Below are positions 1 through 4,961 of a stretch of DNA of 4,961 nucleotides, one piece after another; within the stretch, counting starts at the first letter, position 1, and each line of letters begins with the position of its first letter. A program made the position numbers and the translations under genes. This DNA comes from a virus (lineage: Duplodnaviria > Heunggongvirae > Uroviricota > Caudoviricetes): positions 1 through 4,961 of IMG/VR virus record IMGVR_UViG_2698536450_000012; one strand, given 5' to 3'. The notes beneath the pieces were generated by a model. That model had not been told where the DNA came from. It searched no databases and saw nothing but the letters and a program-made list of their open reading frames with translations.

Positions 1-84
1 AATGGCAGTGGCTACAGCGACGGCACCTTCTTCCTTTATTGCCTGTTCGTCCGGAATGGCGGCGCAAATAAAGACTTTACTCAT
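1..84 (-). CDS. Hypothetical protein, 5' end only (gene continues past the left edge of the window); N-terminus MSKVFICAAIPDEQAIKEEGAVAVATAI
   Basis: ATG at 84..82 on the minus strand, with a GAGGT Shine-Dalgarno (reverse complement of 93..97) 8 nt upstream. The frame is open to the window edge (28 codons). It is absent from the ORF track because no stop lies inside the window. Confidence 0.5.
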   Translation of the reverse strand, partial: MSKVFICAAIPDEQAIKEEGAVAVATAI

Positions 85-163
85 TTTGTTTTACCTCATT
101 ACAGATTTAAGGGTGAACAAATCCCTGCCATTGCTGGCATATAAAAATGAAACTGGATATTAA

Positions 164-367
164 TTACGGCGCTGTTTTTAATCCTGCCGGGATTTCGTTA
201 TTGTCCATGTGAATAACTTTATCGACCGGATAACAGTTGCCGGGAATTTTCTGTTCCGCTGCGGCAGCCATGCATTCTTTCATTGAGTTGTACATGCCGG
301 TGATTGCATCAAGCGACTCACCAGTATTGAGATGTACAGTCAGAATGAGTATGAATAATGTGTTCAT
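164..367 (-). CDS. Small hypothetical protein (67 aa from the ATG) with a hydrophobic N-terminal segment (MNTLFILILTVHLNTG), possibly a signal peptide or membrane anchor, and two Cys in the C-terminal part
   Basis: ORF track 164..373. The ATG at 367..365 overlaps the TGA stop of the upstream ORF (366..364) as ATGA, which suggests translational coupling. GGAGAG lies 5 nt upstream. The track start at 373 is a GTG two codons further up. Confidence 0.55.
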   Translation of the reverse strand: MNTLFILILTVHLNTGESLDAITGMYNSMKECMAAAAEQKIPGNCYPVDKVIHMDNNEIPAGLKTAP

Positions 368-552
368 CGCCACTCTCCGAAAATACCGAGTTTAAGAAGG
401 GCAATTCTGGAGAGTATGGAATTGTCATTCAGCAGGTAGGGTTCATATTTTCTCATATTGATTGCATCCTCGGTGAAATCCCTGTTACTGAGCAGAACAC
501 CAATATTAAAGCACCCGTCAGACGTATTAACGTTTGGTAGTGACGTTTCCAT
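364..552 (-). CDS. Small hypothetical protein, 62 aa, no recognisable domain
   Basis: ATG at 552..550 lies 10 nt downstream of the rha stop (565..563). A GAGGA Shine-Dalgarno overlaps the rha stop codon with a 7-nt spacer. Same strand and operon context as rha. Confidence 0.55.
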   Translation of the reverse strand: METSLPNVNTSDGCFNIGVLLSNRDFTEDAINMRKYEPYLLNDNSILSRIALLKLGIFGEWR

Positions 553-562
553 TATCGCGTCC

Positions 563-1120
563 TCAACAATGAATTTTTAGCAATTGCTCCACAGTCATAT
601 TTTTAATTGCGCTCCGGTTTACAAGAGTCCATCCTTGTTTCTCCAGATAAAACCGGAAGGTATCCAGGGTGCAGACCATTGCGCCGTCAGGAACGGTTTC
701 AGTGAATTTGATATTGCCGTGTTCGTCGAGACGGATAACTAGGGTGCGTCCGTCCCCGTGAATCATTTTGTCGGGAGACGGGGCGTTATTCTGGCGCAGT
801 TCTTCCTCCATGCGATCGAACTCAGCGATGTAGGCTTCTTTGAAAGTTGCGGCTTTTTTACCTGTGAACCCCATCACCAGGAAAACGAAGCCGTTTTTGG
901 TGATTTGGTACATGGGGCGTTTTTCGCCTTTGGCGTCGGTGTAGGTAACGGGCGTAAAATTGCGCTCGTTAAAATCTTCAGAGCATTCTAGCGTTTCAAT
1001 TTTGCGCAGAACGTCCTTGTGCATTTTGCGGAAGAACTCTGCAACCGCAACAGACGTAGTGACAGCGCGACCATTTTCGATGGTTACGTCAGGGTGAGAA
1101 AGGGTAGGGATAGTAGCCAT
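563..1120 (-). CDS. rha: Phage regulatory protein, Rha family (N-terminal Rha domain MATIPTLSHPDVTIENGRAVTTSVAVAEFFRKMHKDVLRKIETLE...KGEKRPMYQITKNGFVFLVMGFTGKKAATFKEAYIAEFDRMEEEL, plus a C-terminal domain of unknown function)
   Basis: Recognised from memory as the Rha (Phage_pRha) family. Start placed at the ATG at 1120..1118, which has an AAGAGG Shine-Dalgarno (reverse complement of 1129..1134) 8 nt upstream. The ORF track extends the frame to 1417, but that extension contains a terminator-like hairpin with a U-tract and has no domain-like sequence. Confidence 0.8.
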   Translation of the reverse strand: MATIPTLSHPDVTIENGRAVTTSVAVAEFFRKMHKDVLRKIETLECSEDFNERNFTPVTYTDAKGEKRPMYQITKNGFVFLVMGFTGKKAATFKEAYIAEFDRMEEELRQNNAPSPDKMIHGDGRTLVIRLDEHGNIKFTETVPDGAMVCTLDTFRFYLEKQGWTLVNRSAIKNMTVEQLLKIHC

Positions 1121-1150
1121 AATGGCAGCCTCTTGGTTGAGTATTAATAA

Positions 1151-1189
1151 CTCACCACCAAGGTTTTCCACGACCATAAGGGTGGTGAG
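1151..1189 (-). promoter_or_regulatory. Perfect 9-bp inverted repeat (CTCACCACC / GGTGGTGAG) with a 21-nt loop, in the rha 5' leader about 20 nt upstream of the Shine-Dalgarno
   Basis: Read directly: 1151..1159 is the reverse complement of 1181..1189. As RNA on the minus strand the loop contains GUGGAAAAC. Confidence 0.4.
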
Positions 1190-1288
1190 GCGTACAGGGG
1201 TGGAAATACCGGTCAACCAAGAATCCGGCCAGCCTTGCAGCTGCCCTGCACGCCCCACCATAATCTGAATGTGGCTGTGCTTGACGCA

Positions 1289-1312
1289 TAAAAAAACCGC
1301 CTGAGCGCGGTT
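1289..1312 (-). terminator. Candidate intrinsic terminator on the minus strand (stem aaccgc/gcgguu, 6-nt loop, then U7)
   Basis: On the plus strand an A-run (1290..1296) precedes the hairpin at 1295..1312, so on the minus strand the hairpin is followed by UUUUUUU. The stem is short (4 GC and 2 AU pairs), so strength is moderate. Confidence 0.5.
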
Positions 1313-1372
1313 ATGCGCTTGATTGAATTCCGGGTTTCCACGCCCGGCACCCGTTTTATGAGGTGCAGGTGC

Positions 1373-1401
1373 ACTATAATTCCACCCGTTCTGGTTTTCA
1401 A
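1373..1401 (-). promoter_or_regulatory. Candidate sigma70 promoter on the minus strand: -35 TTGAAA (1401..1396), 17-bp spacer, -10 TATAGT (1378..1373); predicted start near 1366
   Basis: Both hexamers match consensus at 5 of 6 positions with the optimal 17-bp spacer. It lies about 75 nt upstream of the terminator at 1289..1312. Confidence 0.4.
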
Positions 1402-1904
1402 TAGCTACATTCAACATTTTCTCTTACCTTTCATCACCGAAGTGAACTTTGTTGATGCGGTGCCTGGTGCCTCCAGGTGACGTTAACCAGTTAACAATTA
1501 ACGCCGGATACAGAGAATCCACCCATAACACTGTTTTTGGTTTTAACTGTTCCGCGTGCGCTGAGCCGCATTCACCGCATCACAAAATTCACTTTAAAAA
1601 GGGCGGCAGAGCAGCCACGGAGTAAAACTGATACTGCCAAACGTCACCAGAAAATTGATAACAGAGGGCGTTGCAGCGGGGTTGTCACTTAAGCGTATGG
1701 TCAACCTGACAACCCGGTGTCCTCAACGGGGAAGGAATAACCCCGCCATACTTACCGCCGCGCCATTTCGCGGAGTGCCACAACCGGAAGCGCACGGTCG
1801 ACGAAAATTTAACGACAGGCTATCTATGAACCAGCAACCTCGCCGTGCACTTTCGCGTTATGCTCTGACTTTTCAGAGAAATATCCTTTCAGTAAACTGT
1901 CAGT

Positions 1905-1954
1905 GCCGGATGTTCACCCGTGTCCGGCGCACGCACTCCACTTCACCCGTGGAG
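1905..1954. other. Two adjacent stem-loops with a shared loop motif TTCACCCGTG (plus strand) / CACGGGUGAA (minus-strand RNA)
   Basis: Hairpin A has stem 1905..1910 / 1923..1928 (gccgga/tccggc) and a 12-nt loop. Hairpin B has stem 1936..1941 / 1949..1954 (ctccac/gtggag) and a 7-nt loop. The 10-mer TTCACCCGTG occurs at 1913..1922 and 1942..1951. Confidence 0.45.
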
Positions 1955-1993
1955 AACTCCTTAATTACCAACCTTAGCTTCGTTGGTTAGCTA

Positions 1994-2212
1994 TTAACGC
2001 GGGTATGTAATCATTCTGGCAATGCTTAATGCCGCTGCTTTTTCCAGATTGGTGATATCCTGCTCCAGAGCGGACAGATTTTCAGCCTGCTTAGCCCTGG
2101 CTTCATTGGCCCATTTCAGGTCCTGCGCTGCCTTAATTTTCTGGTGCATCCACTCATAAAGTTCATCATCGGTATAGTCTGGCGCGATGATGACGGGTTC
2201 TCGTTTCTGCAT
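1994..2212 (-). CDS. Small hypothetical phage protein, 72 aa (MQKREPVIIAPDYTDDELYEWMHQKIKAAQDLKWANEARAKQAENLSALEQDITNLEKAAALSIARMITYPR)
   Basis: ATG at 2212..2210 with an AAGGAG Shine-Dalgarno 5 nt upstream. The sequence looks protein-like (charged, helical). Same orientation as the leftward early operon. Confidence 0.65.
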   Translation of the reverse strand: MQKREPVIIAPDYTDDELYEWMHQKIKAAQDLKWANEARAKQAENLSALEQDITNLEKAAALSIARMITYPR

Positions 2213-2283
2213 GTCGGCTCCTTGTGGTTAGCGTTGCCTGCTTTTAACCACGTCAGGCGAGGTGGTATCCTCTGAGGGGTCTG

Positions 2284-2640
2284 TTACTCGAGAGGAAATT
2301 GGTTATGAATACAATCAAGTTTTCTTGCCCAGAATGTGGCGGCGAAGTCTTTGACACATCCTTTAAACCGCATGGCTCTGACAGTTTCGCGGGAGCCATC
2401 TGCAAAAATTGTGGTCACCTTGTAACTGAAGATGAGTCCTCGCAGTTTGATGACGAAATCGTTGACAATATCTTCGGTGCACTCACCAGAGACTTTCTGA
2501 AGTAAAGGCGCATACCGCTTAGTTACCGCTCTGATAATTCTTACCTGTCCGGCAATGGCGCTGATATCAATATAAAGCGCCATCGCTGTTTCTTTGCTGA
2601 TCCCTGGATGCCTTCCATTCTGATGTTTGACTTCGCCCAC
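2284..2640 (-). CDS. Alternative call: 118-aa ORF immediately downstream of the leftward early promoter (GTG start), fully overlapping the zinc-ribbon ORF on the opposite strand
   Basis: GTG at 2640..2638 with an AGAGGA Shine-Dalgarno and a 7-nt spacer, about 70 nt downstream of the candidate leftward promoter. Against it: 5 of 9 Arg codons are AGA/AGG, there is no recognisable domain, and antisense frames in the same register often stay open by chance. Confidence 0.3.
   Translation of the reverse strand: MGEVKHQNGRHPGISKETAMALYIDISAIAGQVRIIRAVTKRYAPLLQKVSGECTEDIVNDFVIKLRGLIFSYKVTTIFADGSRETVRAMRFKGCVKDFAATFWARKLDCIHNQFPLE
2305..2505 (+). CDS. Small C4 zinc-ribbon protein, 66 aa (CPEC ... CKNC), with an acidic C-terminal tail (EDESSQFDDEIVD)
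   Basis: ATG at 2305 with an AGAGGA Shine-Dalgarno and an 8-nt spacer. Two CxxC pairs are 23 residues apart. Codon usage is ordinary. It is antisense to, and in the same codon register as, the minus ORF 2284..2640, so only one of the two may be real. Confidence 0.55.
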   Translation: MNTIKFSCPECGGEVFDTSFKPHGSDSFAGAICKNCGHLVTEDESSQFDDEIVDNIFGALTRDFLK

Positions 2641-2718
2641 TGAGAAATCCTCTGTTTCCCCTTAACGCCGGGGTAGCGGAACTAAGACCTGTCGCACCGT
2701 TGTGCTTTGATGGAATAC

Positions 2719-2747
2719 ATTGTTCTCTCTAGGTGAACAAAAGTCAA
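2719..2747 (-). promoter_or_regulatory. Candidate leftward early promoter (pL-like) on the minus strand: -35 TTGACT (2747..2742), 17-bp spacer, -10 AACAAT (2724..2719), overlapped by an operator-like inverted repeat TGTTC-N9-GAACA (2721..2739)
   Basis: Same hexamers, spacer length and embedded inverted repeat as the rightward promoter at 3249..3277. It sits immediately downstream of the repressor terminator. Confidence 0.5.
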
Positions 2748-2761
2748 CATGATGAATACGC

Positions 2762-2791
2762 AAAAAAAAAAAAAAACCGCCTTGCGGCGGT
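2762..2791 (-). terminator. Strong intrinsic terminator of the repressor transcript (stem accgcc/ggcggu, GCAA tetraloop, then U15)
   Basis: On the plus strand A15 (2762..2776) is followed by ccgcc ttgc ggcgg (2777..2790). On the minus strand this is a GC hairpin followed by 15 U, about 25 nt downstream of the repressor stop (2813). Confidence 0.8.
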
Positions 2792-2812
2792 ATGATTCTG
2801 TAAAATAAAGAA

Positions 2813-3202
2813 TTATTTTTGTCGTGTTATTGGGTCGACGTATTCTGAGTAAAATTCGGTCAGTTTTTGGAGTCGCATTTGAAAAGCTGCCAGCATATTT
2901 CTACGTTCTACAGGTGGCAGGTTTCTGTAAACATCAAGCAGGGCCTTCTCGTCATCATCAAGCGCCTCTCTATTTGTCTCTTCTTTCCCTGTCAGTAGCC
3001 AAGAAAGGGAAACGTTTGTGGCTTCTGCAATTTTGGCTGCGGAATCTTTACTGATTGTTCCTCTTTTTTTCCATGCGTTGACTGATGAACGACCTACACC
3101 AGCGATACGCGCTAAATCTGAACCACTTAAATGATGCTGTTGAGAGATCGTATCTAACCTTTCTGCTAGCGGGGTGTCGTATTGCTTTTTTCTCATGTCC
3201 AT
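2813..3202 (-). CDS. Prophage repressor, XRE-type helix-turn-helix (cI / RacR / DicA-like), 129 aa
   Basis: Helix-turn-helix motif LSGSDLARIAGVGRSSVNAWKKRG. Divergent from the Cro-like gene. A consensus TATAAT ends 7 nt before the ATG, which predicts a leaderless transcript with no Shine-Dalgarno, as for lambda cI from pRM. Confidence 0.85.
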   Translation of the reverse strand: MDMRKKQYDTPLAERLDTISQQHHLSGSDLARIAGVGRSSVNAWKKRGTISKDSAAKIAEATNVSLSWLLTGKEETNREALDDDEKALLDVYRNLPPVERRNMLAAFQMRLQKLTEFYSEYVDPITRQK

Positions 3203-3208
3203 TTGGCA

Positions 3209-3236
3209 ATTATAACCGTTCAGTGAACACTAACAA
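3209..3236 (-). promoter_or_regulatory. Candidate repressor-maintenance promoter (pRM-like) on the minus strand: -35 TTGTTA (3236..3231), 16-bp spacer, -10 TATAAT (3214..3209); the spacer contains the palindrome GTTCAgTGAAC (3218..3228)
   Basis: Hexamers and spacing read directly. The predicted transcription start coincides with the A of the repressor ATG at 3202. Confidence 0.5.
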
Positions 3237-3248
3237 TTCCTCGAGGTG

Positions 3249-3277
3249 TTGACTTGTGTTCGTTTTAAGTGAACAAT
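3249..3277 (+). promoter_or_regulatory. Candidate rightward early promoter (pR-like): -35 TTGACT (3249..3254), 17-bp spacer, -10 AACAAT (3272..3277), overlapped by an operator-like inverted repeat TGTTC-N9-GAACA (3257..3275)
   Basis: Back-to-back with the pRM-like promoter. A GGAGG Shine-Dalgarno (3297..3301) precedes the ATG at 3306. Confidence 0.5.
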
Positions 3278-3305
3278 CGTTGTGGTTAGTTGAACTGGAG
3301 GTTGT

Positions 3306-3581
3306 ATGACAGCATTGGACAAAGCAATAAAGATTGCTGGTGGTATTCGTCCGCTAGGGCGTGCAATAGGGGCTTGGCCATCTCAAATACACAAATGGGC
3401 AAATGAATACAATGGTCGAGTGCCGACGGGAGAACGGGTTCGTCAAATTTATATTGCAACTGGGGTTACTCCTCATGAATTGCGACCAGATTTATACCCG
3501 AATCCAACTGACGGGTTGCCTGCTGGAGATAAGGCTAACACACCAAATACACCGGAGTTGATTCATGAAAATCAAGCATGA
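3306..3581 (+). CDS. ydaS: Cro-like DNA-binding regulator, YdaS family, 91 aa
   Basis: Divergent from the repressor, with a GGAGG Shine-Dalgarno. The motif GVTPHELRPDLYP is typical of the YdaS / Cro-type family as recalled from memory. Confidence 0.8.
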   Translation: MTALDKAIKIAGGIRPLGRAIGAWPSQIHKWANEYNGRVPTGERVRQIYIATGVTPHELRPDLYPNPTDGLPAGDKANTPNTPELIHENQA

Positions 3582-3990
3582 ACACATCCGCATGGCGATG
3601 AATGCCTGGGCGCGTCCTGATGGCGAAAAAGTTCCAGCAGCTGGAATAACCCAGGCTTATTTTGAGTTGGGTATGACGTTTCCTGAACTGTATGACGACA
3701 GCCATCCGGAAGCCCTGGCTCGCAATACACAGAAAATTTTCCGCTGGGTAGAGAAAGACACCCCTGATGCAGTTGAAAAAATTCAGGCGTTGTTACCAGC
3801 GATCGAAAAGGCAATGCCACCTTTGCTGGTGGCCAGAATGCGCAGCCACAGTTCAGCTTATTTTCGGGAGCTGGTGGAGACGCGGGAGCGACTGGTGAGA
3901 GACGCTGATGATTTTGTCGCAGTGGCAATCGCCGGTTTCAATCAGATGAACCGTGGTGGCCCGGCAGGAAATGCTGTGGCAGTACATTGA
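3565..3990 (+). CDS. ydaT: YdaT-family regulator, 141 aa, in the cII-equivalent position
   Basis: The N-terminus MKIKHEHI and the C-terminal ...AVAVH match what I recall of Rac YdaT. The start overlaps the ydaS-like stop by 17 nt. GGAG lies 8 nt upstream. Confidence 0.8.
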   Translation: MKIKHEHIRMAMNAWARPDGEKVPAAGITQAYFELGMTFPELYDDSHPEALARNTQKIFRWVEKDTPDAVEKIQALLPAIEKAMPPLLVARMRSHSSAYFRELVETRERLVRDADDFVAVAIAGFNQMNRGGPAGNAVAVH

Positions 3991-4061
3991 CTGACAATAG
4001 CCATATCGAATCGCTTCCGGCAACTCGTGAGTAAAATGATTCGGTATCAGAAGAGGTGAGT

Positions 4062-4961
4062 ATGGCTAACGCCTGGCTCAGATTATGGCATGACATGCCA
4101 AATGACCCTAAGTGGCGAACAATTGCCAGGGTGTCAGGGCAGCCAATTGCAACAGTGATGGCAGTGTATATCCACCTCCTGGTGAGCGCGTCACGAAATG
4201 TCACGCGAGGTCACATTGATGTCACGACAGAAGATTTGGCAAGTGCGCTCGACGTGACAGAAGAGGTAATTGATTCAATTTTGCAGACGATGCAGGGGCG
4301 GGTACTTGATGGTGATTTAATCACTGGATGGGAAAAACGCCAGGTGCTGAAAGAGGACAACGGCAATATTTCGCAAACCGCAAAATCTCCTGCAGAGCGC
4401 AAGAGGGCGCAGCGAGAGAGGGAAAGAAAGCGGGAACAAAATGGCGATTGTCACGGCGCGTCACGAAATGTCACGCACATGTCACGACGAGTCACGACAG
4501 ATAAAGATACAGATAAAGATACAGATCAAGAAGATCAAAACACTATGGTCCATGGCGTAAAAAACGCCACGAACCAGGCAGGGGATGTTCAGACCGTCAA
4601 TCCTGGTCAGCCAGCAGGCACGACACCGGAAGCCGATTCAGCGTATGCGCTGAAAGCCGATTCGGGCGCTGTGCAGCAGGTGATGACCGCAAGGCCGGAG
4701 CAATCACACCAACTGCAGCAGCCTGAAGCCGATTCCGCCATTCAGCGGGAAGCCGATCGGGTAGTCCCGGAAAGCACCGGGCAGTCTGTGGGACGAGTGG
4801 ATTATCCGGATGTGTTCGAACAGGTCTGGCGGGAATACCCGTTGCGTGCCGGGGCAAACCCGAAGAAATCCGCTTTCAGTGCCTGGAAGGCCAGATTGCG
4901 CGAGGGGGTGCCACCAGAGACCATGCTGGATGGTGTGAGGCGTTACGCGAGATACCTGGCG
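4062..4961 (+). CDS. Phage replication initiation / replisome-organizer-type protein, 3' end outside the window (300 codons open to the edge); YdaU / lambda-O-equivalent position; family assignment unverified
   Basis: ATG at 4062 with an AGAGGTGA Shine-Dalgarno. Translated by hand with no stop to position 4961 (MANAWLRLWHDMPNDPKWRTIARVSGQPIATVMAVYIHLL...). Two iteron clusters lie inside the gene. It is absent from the ORF track because it has no stop. Confidence 0.8.
   Translation, partial: MANAWLRLWHDMPNDPKWRTIARVSGQPIATVMAVYIHLLVSASRNVTRGHIDVTTEDLASALDVTEEVIDSILQTMQGRVLDGDLITGWEKRQVLKEDNGNISQTAKSPAERKRAQRERERKREQNGDCHGASRNVTHMSRRVTTDKDTDKDTDQEDQNTMVHGVKNATNQAGDVQTVNPGQPAGTTPEADSAYALKADSGAVQQVMTARPEQSHQLQQPEADSAIQREADRVVPESTGQSVGRVDYPDVFEQVWREYPLRAGANPKKSAFSAWKARLREGVPPETMLDGVRRYARYLA
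4190..4230. repeat. Iteron cluster 1: four GTCACG/GTCACA repeats at 10-11 bp spacing (4190, 4200, 4210, 4221)
   Basis: Read directly: gtcacgaaat gtcacgcgag gtcacattgat gtcacgacag. The spacing is helically phased. Confidence 0.6.
4450..4541. repeat. Iteron cluster 2: five GTCACG repeats (4450, 4460, 4470, 4481, 4491), then an A-rich tract with a tandem 12-bp repeat CAGATAAAGATA x2 (4498..4521) and two GATC sites (4524, 4533); candidate phage origin of replication
   Basis: Read directly. The 18-mer GCGTCACGAAATGTCACG is shared between the two clusters (4187..4204 and 4457..4474). Iterons followed by an AT-rich segment inside the initiator gene mirror the lambda origin within gene O. Confidence 0.6.

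Follow-up and report, generated by a model that had tools for sequence, protein, structure and literature searches.

Where does vegetative replication begin in a lambdoid prophage whose initiator protein does not resemble lambda O, and is the origin located within the gene for that initiator? The question is raised by a stretch of 4,961 nucleotides from a virus of the Caudoviricetes (IMG/VR record IMGVR_UViG_2698536450_000012, positions 1 to 4,961; hereafter the window), which comes from a lambdoid E. coli prophage of the Qin/Tritos type and covers its immunity and early-replication region. The rightmost gene of the window, on the plus strand with an ATG at 4062, encodes the replication initiator, of which the 5' 900 nt (300 codons, 4062-4961) are included, the stop codon being beyond the window end. 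Positions 3900-4961 are 97-99% identical to phages Tritos, Evi, 204576 and several vB_Eco isolates, and the initiator, which at full length has 356 amino acids in phage Tritos, is 98-99% identical to the proteins of Tritos, Evi and others. We consider it highly probable, from comparison of sequences, that positions 4186-4576 are the vegetative replication origin of this prophage, composed of two arrays of a GTCACG hexamer, an A-rich tract and an inverted repeat, all inside the gene of the prophage's own initiator.

The hexamer GTCACG is present in nine copies in the window, against an expectation of 1.95 +/- 1.26, with none of 200 shuffled sequences reaching nine, and all nine copies lie within the 307 bp between 4190 and 4496. 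A similar concentration is found in the complete 46-kb genome of Tritos, where nine of 25 GTCACG copies fall in one 302-bp stretch and the other 16 are scattered, with no second cluster. The first array (cluster 1, 4186-4229, plus strand) has exact copies at 4190, 4200 and 4221 and a degenerate GTCACA at 4210, corresponding to spacings of 10, 10 and 11 bp, and is followed 32 bp downstream by an inverted copy on the minus strand (4253-4258). Cluster 1 is situated 130 bp into the coding sequence, without an adjoining A-rich tract, and encodes amino acids 43-56 (ASRNVTRGHIDVTT), that is, the end of helix 1 and the loop between helices 1 and 2 (the H1-H2 loop) of the predicted winged helix. It is located 260 bp upstream of the second array (cluster 2, 4447-4496, plus strand), where five exact copies at 4450, 4460, 4470, 4481 and 4491, with spacings of 10, 10, 11 and 10 bp, encode a low-complexity linker of the protein (amino acids 130-145). 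In addition, a block of 21 bp (GCGCGTCACGAAATGTCACGC) at 4186-4206 is identical to 4456-4476.

An earlier note, made from the letters of this DNA alone, had proposed an origin here on the basis of nine GTCACG copies in clusters of four and five, phased at 10-11 bp, with an 18-bp block duplicated between the clusters. The phasing and the count of nine both stand, with the 'four' of the first cluster corresponding either to three direct copies and one inverted, or to three exact copies and one degenerate; the duplicated block is real, but 21 bp long rather than 18. By contrast, the weak DnaA-box-like sequence listed in the same note at 4167-4175 (TATATCCAC) does not survive inspection, as it has two mismatches to TTWTNCACA, is outdone by 13 sites with no more than one mismatch elsewhere in the window, and is not conserved beyond codon constraints.

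Selection on the repeats as DNA was separated from selection on the protein in an alignment of 22 gapless homologues from different species, with 60-69% nucleotide identity to the window outside the hexamers. At invariant residues, the commonest third-position base has a mean frequency of 0.97 inside the hexamers, versus 0.44 outside (Mann-Whitney p=5e-5), and nucleotide identity is 0.96 inside the cores versus 0.60-0.69 outside, falling to 0.37-0.49 at outside third positions. For instance, within the hexamers V47 is GTC, T48 is ACG, G50 is GGT and V54 is GTC in 22 of 22 homologues, with S44 being TCA in 21 of 22, whereas three to six synonymous codons are in use for the invariant amino acids outside the hexamers, and the third base of R49, which is positioned in the spacer between two hexamers, is free to vary. 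Moreover, the cluster 2 hexamers of the relatives fall in each of the three reading frames (31, 28 and 26 occurrences), the hexamer encoding V-T, S-R or C-H according to frame. What is shown is selection as DNA on the GTCACG hexamers, on their 10-bp phasing and on their positions. The result is the opposite of what the earlier note had named as contrary to its proposal, namely a conserved protein whose repeats are not conserved at the DNA level.

The last iteron of cluster 2 is followed directly by an A-rich, purine-rich tract (4497-4545, plus strand) that encodes TDKDTDKDTDQEDQ and is the proposed DNA-unwinding element. As the earlier note had described, the tract contains a 12-bp tandem repeat (ACAGATAAAGAT, 2.9 copies, 4497-4531) and two GATC sites (4524 and 4533). 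Counted over the 50 bases that follow the last iteron (4497-4546), A+T is 72% and A alone 56%, in a gene with 45% A+T. Immediately to the right of the tract is an imperfect inverted repeat (TGGTCCATGGCGT / ACGCCACGAACCA, 4546-4576) with the perfect core TGGCGT-aaaaa-ACGCCA. In relatives, a purine-rich tract of the AGATAA(A/G) type, 30-50 bp long, lies directly 3' of the last iteron in every iteron class, with an A+T content of 0.54-0.78 even where that of the gene is only 0.32-0.40, and inverted repeats are enriched 45-60 nt past the last iteron, with a perfect stem of at least 7 bp in 28% of 39 loci versus 5% of 719 control windows. These comparisons show the A-rich AGATAA-repeat tract always, and an inverted repeat often, following the second array.

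As a separate observation, the AGATAA(A/G) repeats are kept in all iteron classes from Proteobacteria to metagenome-assembled genomes of Acidobacteria, with 40 of 50 loci having two or more AGATA[AC]. A plain A/T-rich unwinding element would not need such specificity of sequence.

The distribution of the arrays was addressed by a genome-wide scan, which yielded 52 loci. Approximately 27 of these, representing ~27 species of Gamma- and Betaproteobacteria, keep both GTCACG arrays at the same places, and their hosts include Shigella, E. albertii, Aquitalea, Entomomonas, Rahnella, Serratia, Bordetella, Pseudomonas, Gilvimarinus, Acidovorax, Stenotrophomonas, Castellaniella, Pseudothauera, Chromobacterium and others. 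The cluster 1 gene offsets of 128, 138, 148 and 159 are retained in these ~27 loci, while the inverted copy at offset 191 (minus strand) is less conserved than the direct copies, being present in roughly half of the GTCACG-class loci. Equivalents of cluster 2 are found in all relatives examined, with two to nine copies, and the iteron unit has the consensus GTCACG-M-N-R-N with a spacing of 10 bp in 52 of 60 intervals. The comparison of iteron positions among homologous replication genes that the earlier note had called for thus finds two arrays in matching positions in E. coli, Pseudomonas, Bordetella, Chromobacterium and further hosts, and its statement that the iteron is specific to this element is overturned, since GTCACG is family-wide and occurs in many genera.

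Distant members of the family that lack GTCACG carry another hexamer at the same two places, namely GTAACG, CGAACG/GAACGC or AACGCC, and motif discovery run separately on the two regions returned the same hexamer for both. Because one of the two search patterns of the genome scan covered the peptide encoded by cluster 1, an independent sample of viral contigs was drawn, picked only by the codons for MPNDPKWR. In this sample, the two regions agree in class in 57 of 57 unique viral loci (50 GTCACG, 4 GAACGC and 3 GTAACG). With respect to host, GTCACG is found in Serratia and Erwinia loci, and GTAACG in Pantoea and Enterobacter loci. Taken at the level of sequence, the two samples show the hexamers always accompanying one predicted N-terminal winged-helix-like domain, and changing in concert in both arrays between subfamilies.

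The H1-H2 loop that cluster 1 encodes is longer by 7 amino acids in E. albertii and many E. coli phages, which adds one more iteron pair, and by ~20 amino acids in one Pseudomonas locus; it is replaced in the non-GTCACG iteron classes, and cluster 1 is absent in a few distant relatives that retain cluster 2. Since cluster 1 is expandable and can be absent, it looks accessory on this comparative evidence. In many E. coli and E. albertii variants (L008, 2501-2700; L062, L069, L071 and other contigs), the addition was seen as a 21-bp (7-amino-acid, TTCHGVSL) insertion in cluster 1, with four to six copies in cluster 2, and contig L128 has six and nine iteron copies. Iteron number here varies through insertion inside a loop of the predicted winged-helix domain. 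Two related ideas were tried and set aside. The H1-H2 loop as the determinant of iteron specificity is weakened, as its length tracks iteron number and the loops of the GTAACG class are unrelated in sequence, and a conserved helical phasing between the two clusters was rejected, with inter-cluster distances of 240-350 bp showing no consistent register by inspection.

The initiator itself is modular, as revealed by tblastn of phage genomes. Residues 1-138 are 69.5% identical to an initiator found in the Pseudomonas phages phita81A and P7869; that protein has an unrelated C-terminal half, and its gene is followed by one for a primase-helicase. Residues 158-356 are instead common to the initiators of many enterobacterial phages in which the N-terminus is different (PhiR5_2, the 75/02 Stx (Shiga toxin) phage, phiP27, ST64B and mEp460). 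Similarity switches from the Pseudomonas-type to the PhiR5_2-type initiator at amino acids 150-160, corresponding to nt 4510-4540, and these alignments place the recombination junction of the modules, with the conserved N-domain on one side and exchangeable C-terminal halves on the other, in the A-rich tract. The repeats go with the N-terminal part: the Pseudomonas genes have GTCACG at the window's offsets of 128, 138, 148 and 159, an inverted copy at 191, further copies at 387-417 and then GATAAAGATACAGAAGAAGAG, with a different linker peptide, whereas phages that share only the C-terminus of the initiator have no GTCACG cluster. In PhiR5_2 and 75/02 Stx, where the N-domain is unrelated, only weak repeats were found, together with a purine-rich CAGGAA repeat at the equivalent junction.

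The gene that follows the initiator differs between relatives. In L003 it encodes a primase-helicase with Toprim and DnaB_C domains, in L009 a lambda P-like protein, in L022 a DnaB helicase, and in L031 and L047 a DnaC/IstB-like loader, while in other relatives nothing recognisable follows. These partners span the usual range of phage replication modules, and the gene order confirms that the cassette of N-domain plus repeats belongs to an initiator.

In E. coli, the initiator-plus-origin module is carried by 2210 of 5426 complete genomes (41%). Eleven plasmid records contain it as well, mostly large E. coli plasmids or mis-labelled chromosomes carrying prophages, and these were discarded as evidence of autonomous replication, prophage-bearing or probable phage records being uninformative in this respect. 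For instance, CP137943.1 and CP124671.1 (P. aeruginosa, ~50.9 kb), with an initiator N-domain 73% identical, are filed as non-mobilizable plasmids but, to judge by their size, are probably circular phage genomes recorded as such. Two further loci, L049 (Serratia) and L056 (Pantoea), have the conserved N-domain and then, at gene offsets 320-460, ACTACG/TACGTAG repeats and a GIY-YIG-like peptide (YVYYVATTDGDVVRVGISRNPW), without the usual linker and C-terminal domain.

What kind of initiator is encoded here? Homologues in Tritos/Evi-type phages are annotated as replication protein, replisome organiser or O, with the National Center for Biotechnology Information (NCBI) and some depositors using 'phage replisome organizer', and the protein matches PHROG 3729, 'replication initiation protein', with E=1e-257. 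The full 356-amino-acid protein has no match at E<=1 to Phage_rep_O, the profile of the lambda O family, and no match to Rep_3 or other plasmid Rep families of Pfam, while profile comparison (hhalign) with TP901-1 Rep gives a probability of 1.5%, meaning no detectable homology. On these profile searches, the protein is a member of an uncharacterised initiator family and not a homologue of lambda O.

A winged-helix-like fold is predicted for the N-domain by an AlphaFold (AF2) model of residues 1-160, in which the mean predicted local distance difference test score is 72.7, and 10-residue blocks over positions 11-90 score 87-96, apart from one block at 78. The model opens with three N-terminal helices, after which come a loop containing a short strand (46-55), helices at 56-63 and 67-77 and a beta hairpin at 78-88, giving the topology helix 29-45, strand at 51, helix 56-63, helix 67-77 and hairpin 78-88.

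The other end of the protein, beyond the window, carries a different signature. Its C-terminus, QRCVNHISEPDTEIPPGFRG (amino acids 337-356 in Tritos; L001, 6171-6230), is a near-copy of the C-terminal tail of host DnaT, with 17 of 20 residues identical to the DnaT chains 6aep and 2ru8 (E=0.015-0.06; also PDB 9zbt), a likeness that is limited to the last 22-25 residues. Among whole-protein models, NCBIfam DnaT gives 18.2 bits against a cut-off of 201, and Pfam DnaT does not match the initiator of the window's phage but does match 3 of 18 relatives. DnaT works in the PriA-PriB-DnaT pathway that reloads DnaB-DnaC (PMC13220808). In the Tritos genome there is no helicase or loader gene, and the gene after the initiator encodes a DUF977/Ren-like protein. 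The resemblance of the tail suggests mimicry of a replication-restart protein to obtain the host DnaB-DnaC, and because no loader gene follows and the tail copies DnaT, it is probably by mimicking replication restart that the host complex would be recruited.

The sequence of events at such an origin can be envisaged as follows. Initiator molecules would line up head-to-tail on the five iterons of cluster 2, each turn of the helix taking one molecule, and the resulting nucleoprotein array would occupy one face of the DNA; this array, together with supercoiling and pR-driven transcription through the gene, would open the adjacent A-rich tract. The C-terminal half would then bring in the helicase, here probably the host DnaB-DnaC via the DnaT-like tail, whereas in relatives the cassette of N-domain plus origin would be joined to C-termini whose partner is a phage primase-helicase, a DnaB, a protein like lambda P or a DnaC-like loader. 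Cluster 1 would probably raise the local concentration of initiator or bridge to cluster 2.

Other functions for the repeats, or none, have to be weighed against this proposal. The motif could have no function at all, having arisen by chance, by recent local duplication or as a by-product of a repeated peptide (SRNVT...VT). Such an origin of the motif would fit the 21-bp block that is identical between the clusters in this lineage, as well as the recurrence of ASRNVT and VTT in the protein, but it is at odds with the shuffled sequences and with the synonymous sites frozen in 22 diverged loci; in addition, Pseudomonas homologues keep the hexamers without the 21-bp identity, which is therefore a lineage-specific feature. 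The probability of this explanation is negligible, and the repeated peptide in particular was ruled out as a source by the differing reading frames and the frozen synonymous sites. Synonymous constraint by itself fits a function in DNA or in RNA alike, and the repeats might act in the message, as a structure or protein-binding motif that controls translation or stability of the initiator mRNA. RNA from 4440-4580 does fold slightly better than shuffles (z=-2.06), although the z-scores are marginal (the second being -1.19) and derive mainly from the downstream hairpin, and the hexamers, being direct repeats, are unable to pair with one another. The strict helical-turn phasing and the inverted copy on the opposite strand point instead to recognition of duplex DNA, leaving an RNA-level role very improbable.

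If the repeats are recognised as duplex DNA, the protein involved might still be one of the host, such as a response regulator of the OmpR/PhoB type, rather than the phage initiator. Units of 10-11 bp arranged head-to-tail are what such a protein would bind, and TGTCAC resembles the pho-box half-site TGTCAT. However, GTCACG is constant across E. coli, Pseudomonas, Bordetella and Chromobacterium while related enterobacterial hosts differ in class, and the hexamer class tracks the lineage of the initiator, with both arrays changing together, making a host protein hardly more than a nominal contender. A more serious rival, which we nonetheless judge improbable, holds that the arrays are initiator-binding sites with a mainly regulatory function (autorepression, a transcriptional roadblock or copy control by handcuffing), the true origin lying elsewhere. 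Separate control arrays are known in iteron plasmids, and the situation of cluster 1, ~130 bp into the coding sequence with no A-rich tract beside it and missing in some distant relatives, is suited to an accessory or regulatory role. Set against this are the lack of any other GTCACG cluster in the whole Tritos genome, the constant abutment of cluster 2 on the A-rich tract and often on a palindrome, and the position of cluster 2 at a domain junction, which mirrors the proven origins of lambda and SPP1 (PMC7466680, PMC5737612). A regulatory role of cluster 1 alone, moreover, is compatible with an origin at cluster 2 and does not replace it.

Several observations count against assigning the origin to 4186-4576. 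Conservation as DNA proves a function in DNA (or RNA), and not initiation. At ~45 bp the A-rich tract is short, its A+T content is only moderate, and it also codes for a DK-repeat, mostly in one frame. With regard to the protein, the best Pfam match, to Phage_rep_org_N (PF09681; 15.6 bits, E=0.017, profile positions 1-119 of 121), is below the gathering cut-off of 23.3 bits, and E<=0.1 is reached by only one of 18 family members. Similarly, the top Foldseek neighbours of the N-domain in PDB include winged-helix proteins (CRP/FNR, GntR, MarR and ArsR), but all are weak (E>=0.24). The N-domain outside the loop is nearly identical between iteron classes, and the loops of the GTAACG class differ among themselves, so that neither singles out residues for reading the class-specific bases. 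Finally, literature searches on GTCACG iterons, on the replication regions of Eru-type Stx phages and on replisome-organiser origins turned up no account of this origin or of its iterons.

A more elaborate version of the origin proposal can be put forward tentatively, and we think it rather unlikely. The origin would be bipartite, with the H1-H2 loop serving as an expandable iteron cassette that is bridged by initiator, through looping or handcuffing, to the core array 260 bp away, and so times or limits firing; the conserved AGATAA repeats would be a sequence-specific element recognised as single strand, and not a passive A/T-rich tract. If so, a switch in specificity among GTCACG, GTAACG and CGAACG would require both arrays to change in concert, and the change in one of them would alter part of the initiator protein itself.

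The remainder of the window is occupied by the genes of the immunity region. A Rha-type regulator is encoded by an open reading frame (ORF) of 284 amino acids on the minus strand (563-1417), a cI-like repressor on the same strand (2813-3202), and a YdaS/Cro-like gene (3306-3581) and a YdaT/cII-like gene (3565-3990) lie between the repressor and the initiator. Three RNAs match Rfam at the gathering level, all on the minus strand: the C4 antisense RNA (1178-1265), the Hfq-binding RNA isrK (1290-1366) and DicF (1601-1652). The C4 and isrK RNAs are overlapped by the 284-amino-acid ORF, and the 'Ash' Pfam match of that ORF (amino acids 14-109) spans the same stretch. Because of this overlap, the true start of the Rha-type gene may be an internal ATG near 1121, which would place the two RNAs in its leader. 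Just downstream of the cI-like gene, a run of 15 A residues followed by a GC hairpin (CCGCCTTGCGGCGG, 2762-2792) looks like an intrinsic terminator of that gene, possibly one that works in both directions. Between the DicF region and the repressor gene, a plus-strand ORF of 68 amino acids (2299-2505) has two CxxC pairs (CPECGG ... CKNCGH) and is a possible zinc-ribbon protein.

A defined origin in this family would be of use in several respects. Helicase loading by 'initiator-only' lambdoid phages, in this case probably via mimicry of the DnaT tail, could be tested directly, and a defined origin would permit prediction of cross-activation or incompatibility between co-resident prophages of the same iteron class. 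The compact and portable pair of initiator and origin, with at least three natural specificity classes, may also serve vector design. Lastly, the overlap of protein and DNA codes produces frozen synonymous sites in the gene, which is useful to bear in mind when codon-level selection scans are interpreted.

How does the locus compare with replication origins that are already known? Origins situated within the genes of their own initiators have been proven experimentally for lambda, where ori lies within gene O (PMC7466680), for SPP1, where oriL lies within gene 38, encoding the replisome organiser G38P (PMC5737612), and for TP901-1 and Tuc2009, where repeats lie within the replisome-organiser genes ORF13 and Rep2009 (PMC8965321). 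The resemblance to lambda, and to the O genes of Stx phages 933W and P27, is one of anatomy: the origin is located mid-gene, at the boundary between an N-terminal DNA-binding part and a C-terminal helicase-recruiting part; an array of direct repeats is followed by an A/T-rich, purine-biased tract and then a palindrome; the number of iterons varies between relatives, adding residues to the protein (PMC7466680); and the N-domain plus origin forms an exchangeable module. The lambda-like, origin-within-initiator arrangement suggested in the earlier note is supported by the phased repeats, the adjoining A-rich tract, the location at a domain junction and the DNA-level selection, all of them features read from sequence.

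The differences from lambda are equally plain. There is no sequence homology to O, in that no Phage_rep_O match is seen at E<=1, and the units are 10-11 bp long, abutting, with an invariant core of 6 bp, whereas the lambda iterons are 18-19 bp with internal dyad symmetry. The coding region of the predicted DNA-binding domain holds a second array, 260 bp upstream, and in place of a following P-type loader gene there is a DnaT-like tail. As in SPP1, TP901-1 and Tuc2009, repeats for the initiator are embedded in its own gene beside an A/T-rich unwinding element (PMC5737612, PMC8965321), with binding being presumed in the present case. The hosts, however, are proteobacterial and not Firmicutes, the repeats are different, and the two-array layout is not shared.

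Iteron plasmid replicons of the RepA/pi family (P1, F, R6K and pPS10) have direct repeats bound by a winged-helix initiator beside an A/T-rich region, and separate accessory control arrays. The present locus has the counterparts of each, in its direct repeats, a predicted winged-helix initiator, an adjoining A/T-rich region and an accessory array, but its unit has about half the length usual in plasmids (17-22 bp), the origin lies within coding sequence, there is no DnaA box, and the protein has no plasmid Rep match in Pfam. For the geometry of binding, proteins of the OmpR/PhoB type offer an analogy, as these occupy direct repeats of 10-11 bp head-to-tail on the same DNA face, with one winged-helix monomer per helical turn; the analogy goes no further, these being transcription factors unrelated in sequence to the initiator. 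The likeness to lambda is one of design and not of family. The design itself is already known from lambda, SPP1 and TP901-1, and what is new here is its occurrence in a family without a described origin, where it has unusual details: two arrays, one of them inside the coding sequence of the predicted DNA-binding domain, units of 10 bp, at least three matched specificity classes and a conserved AGATAA tract.

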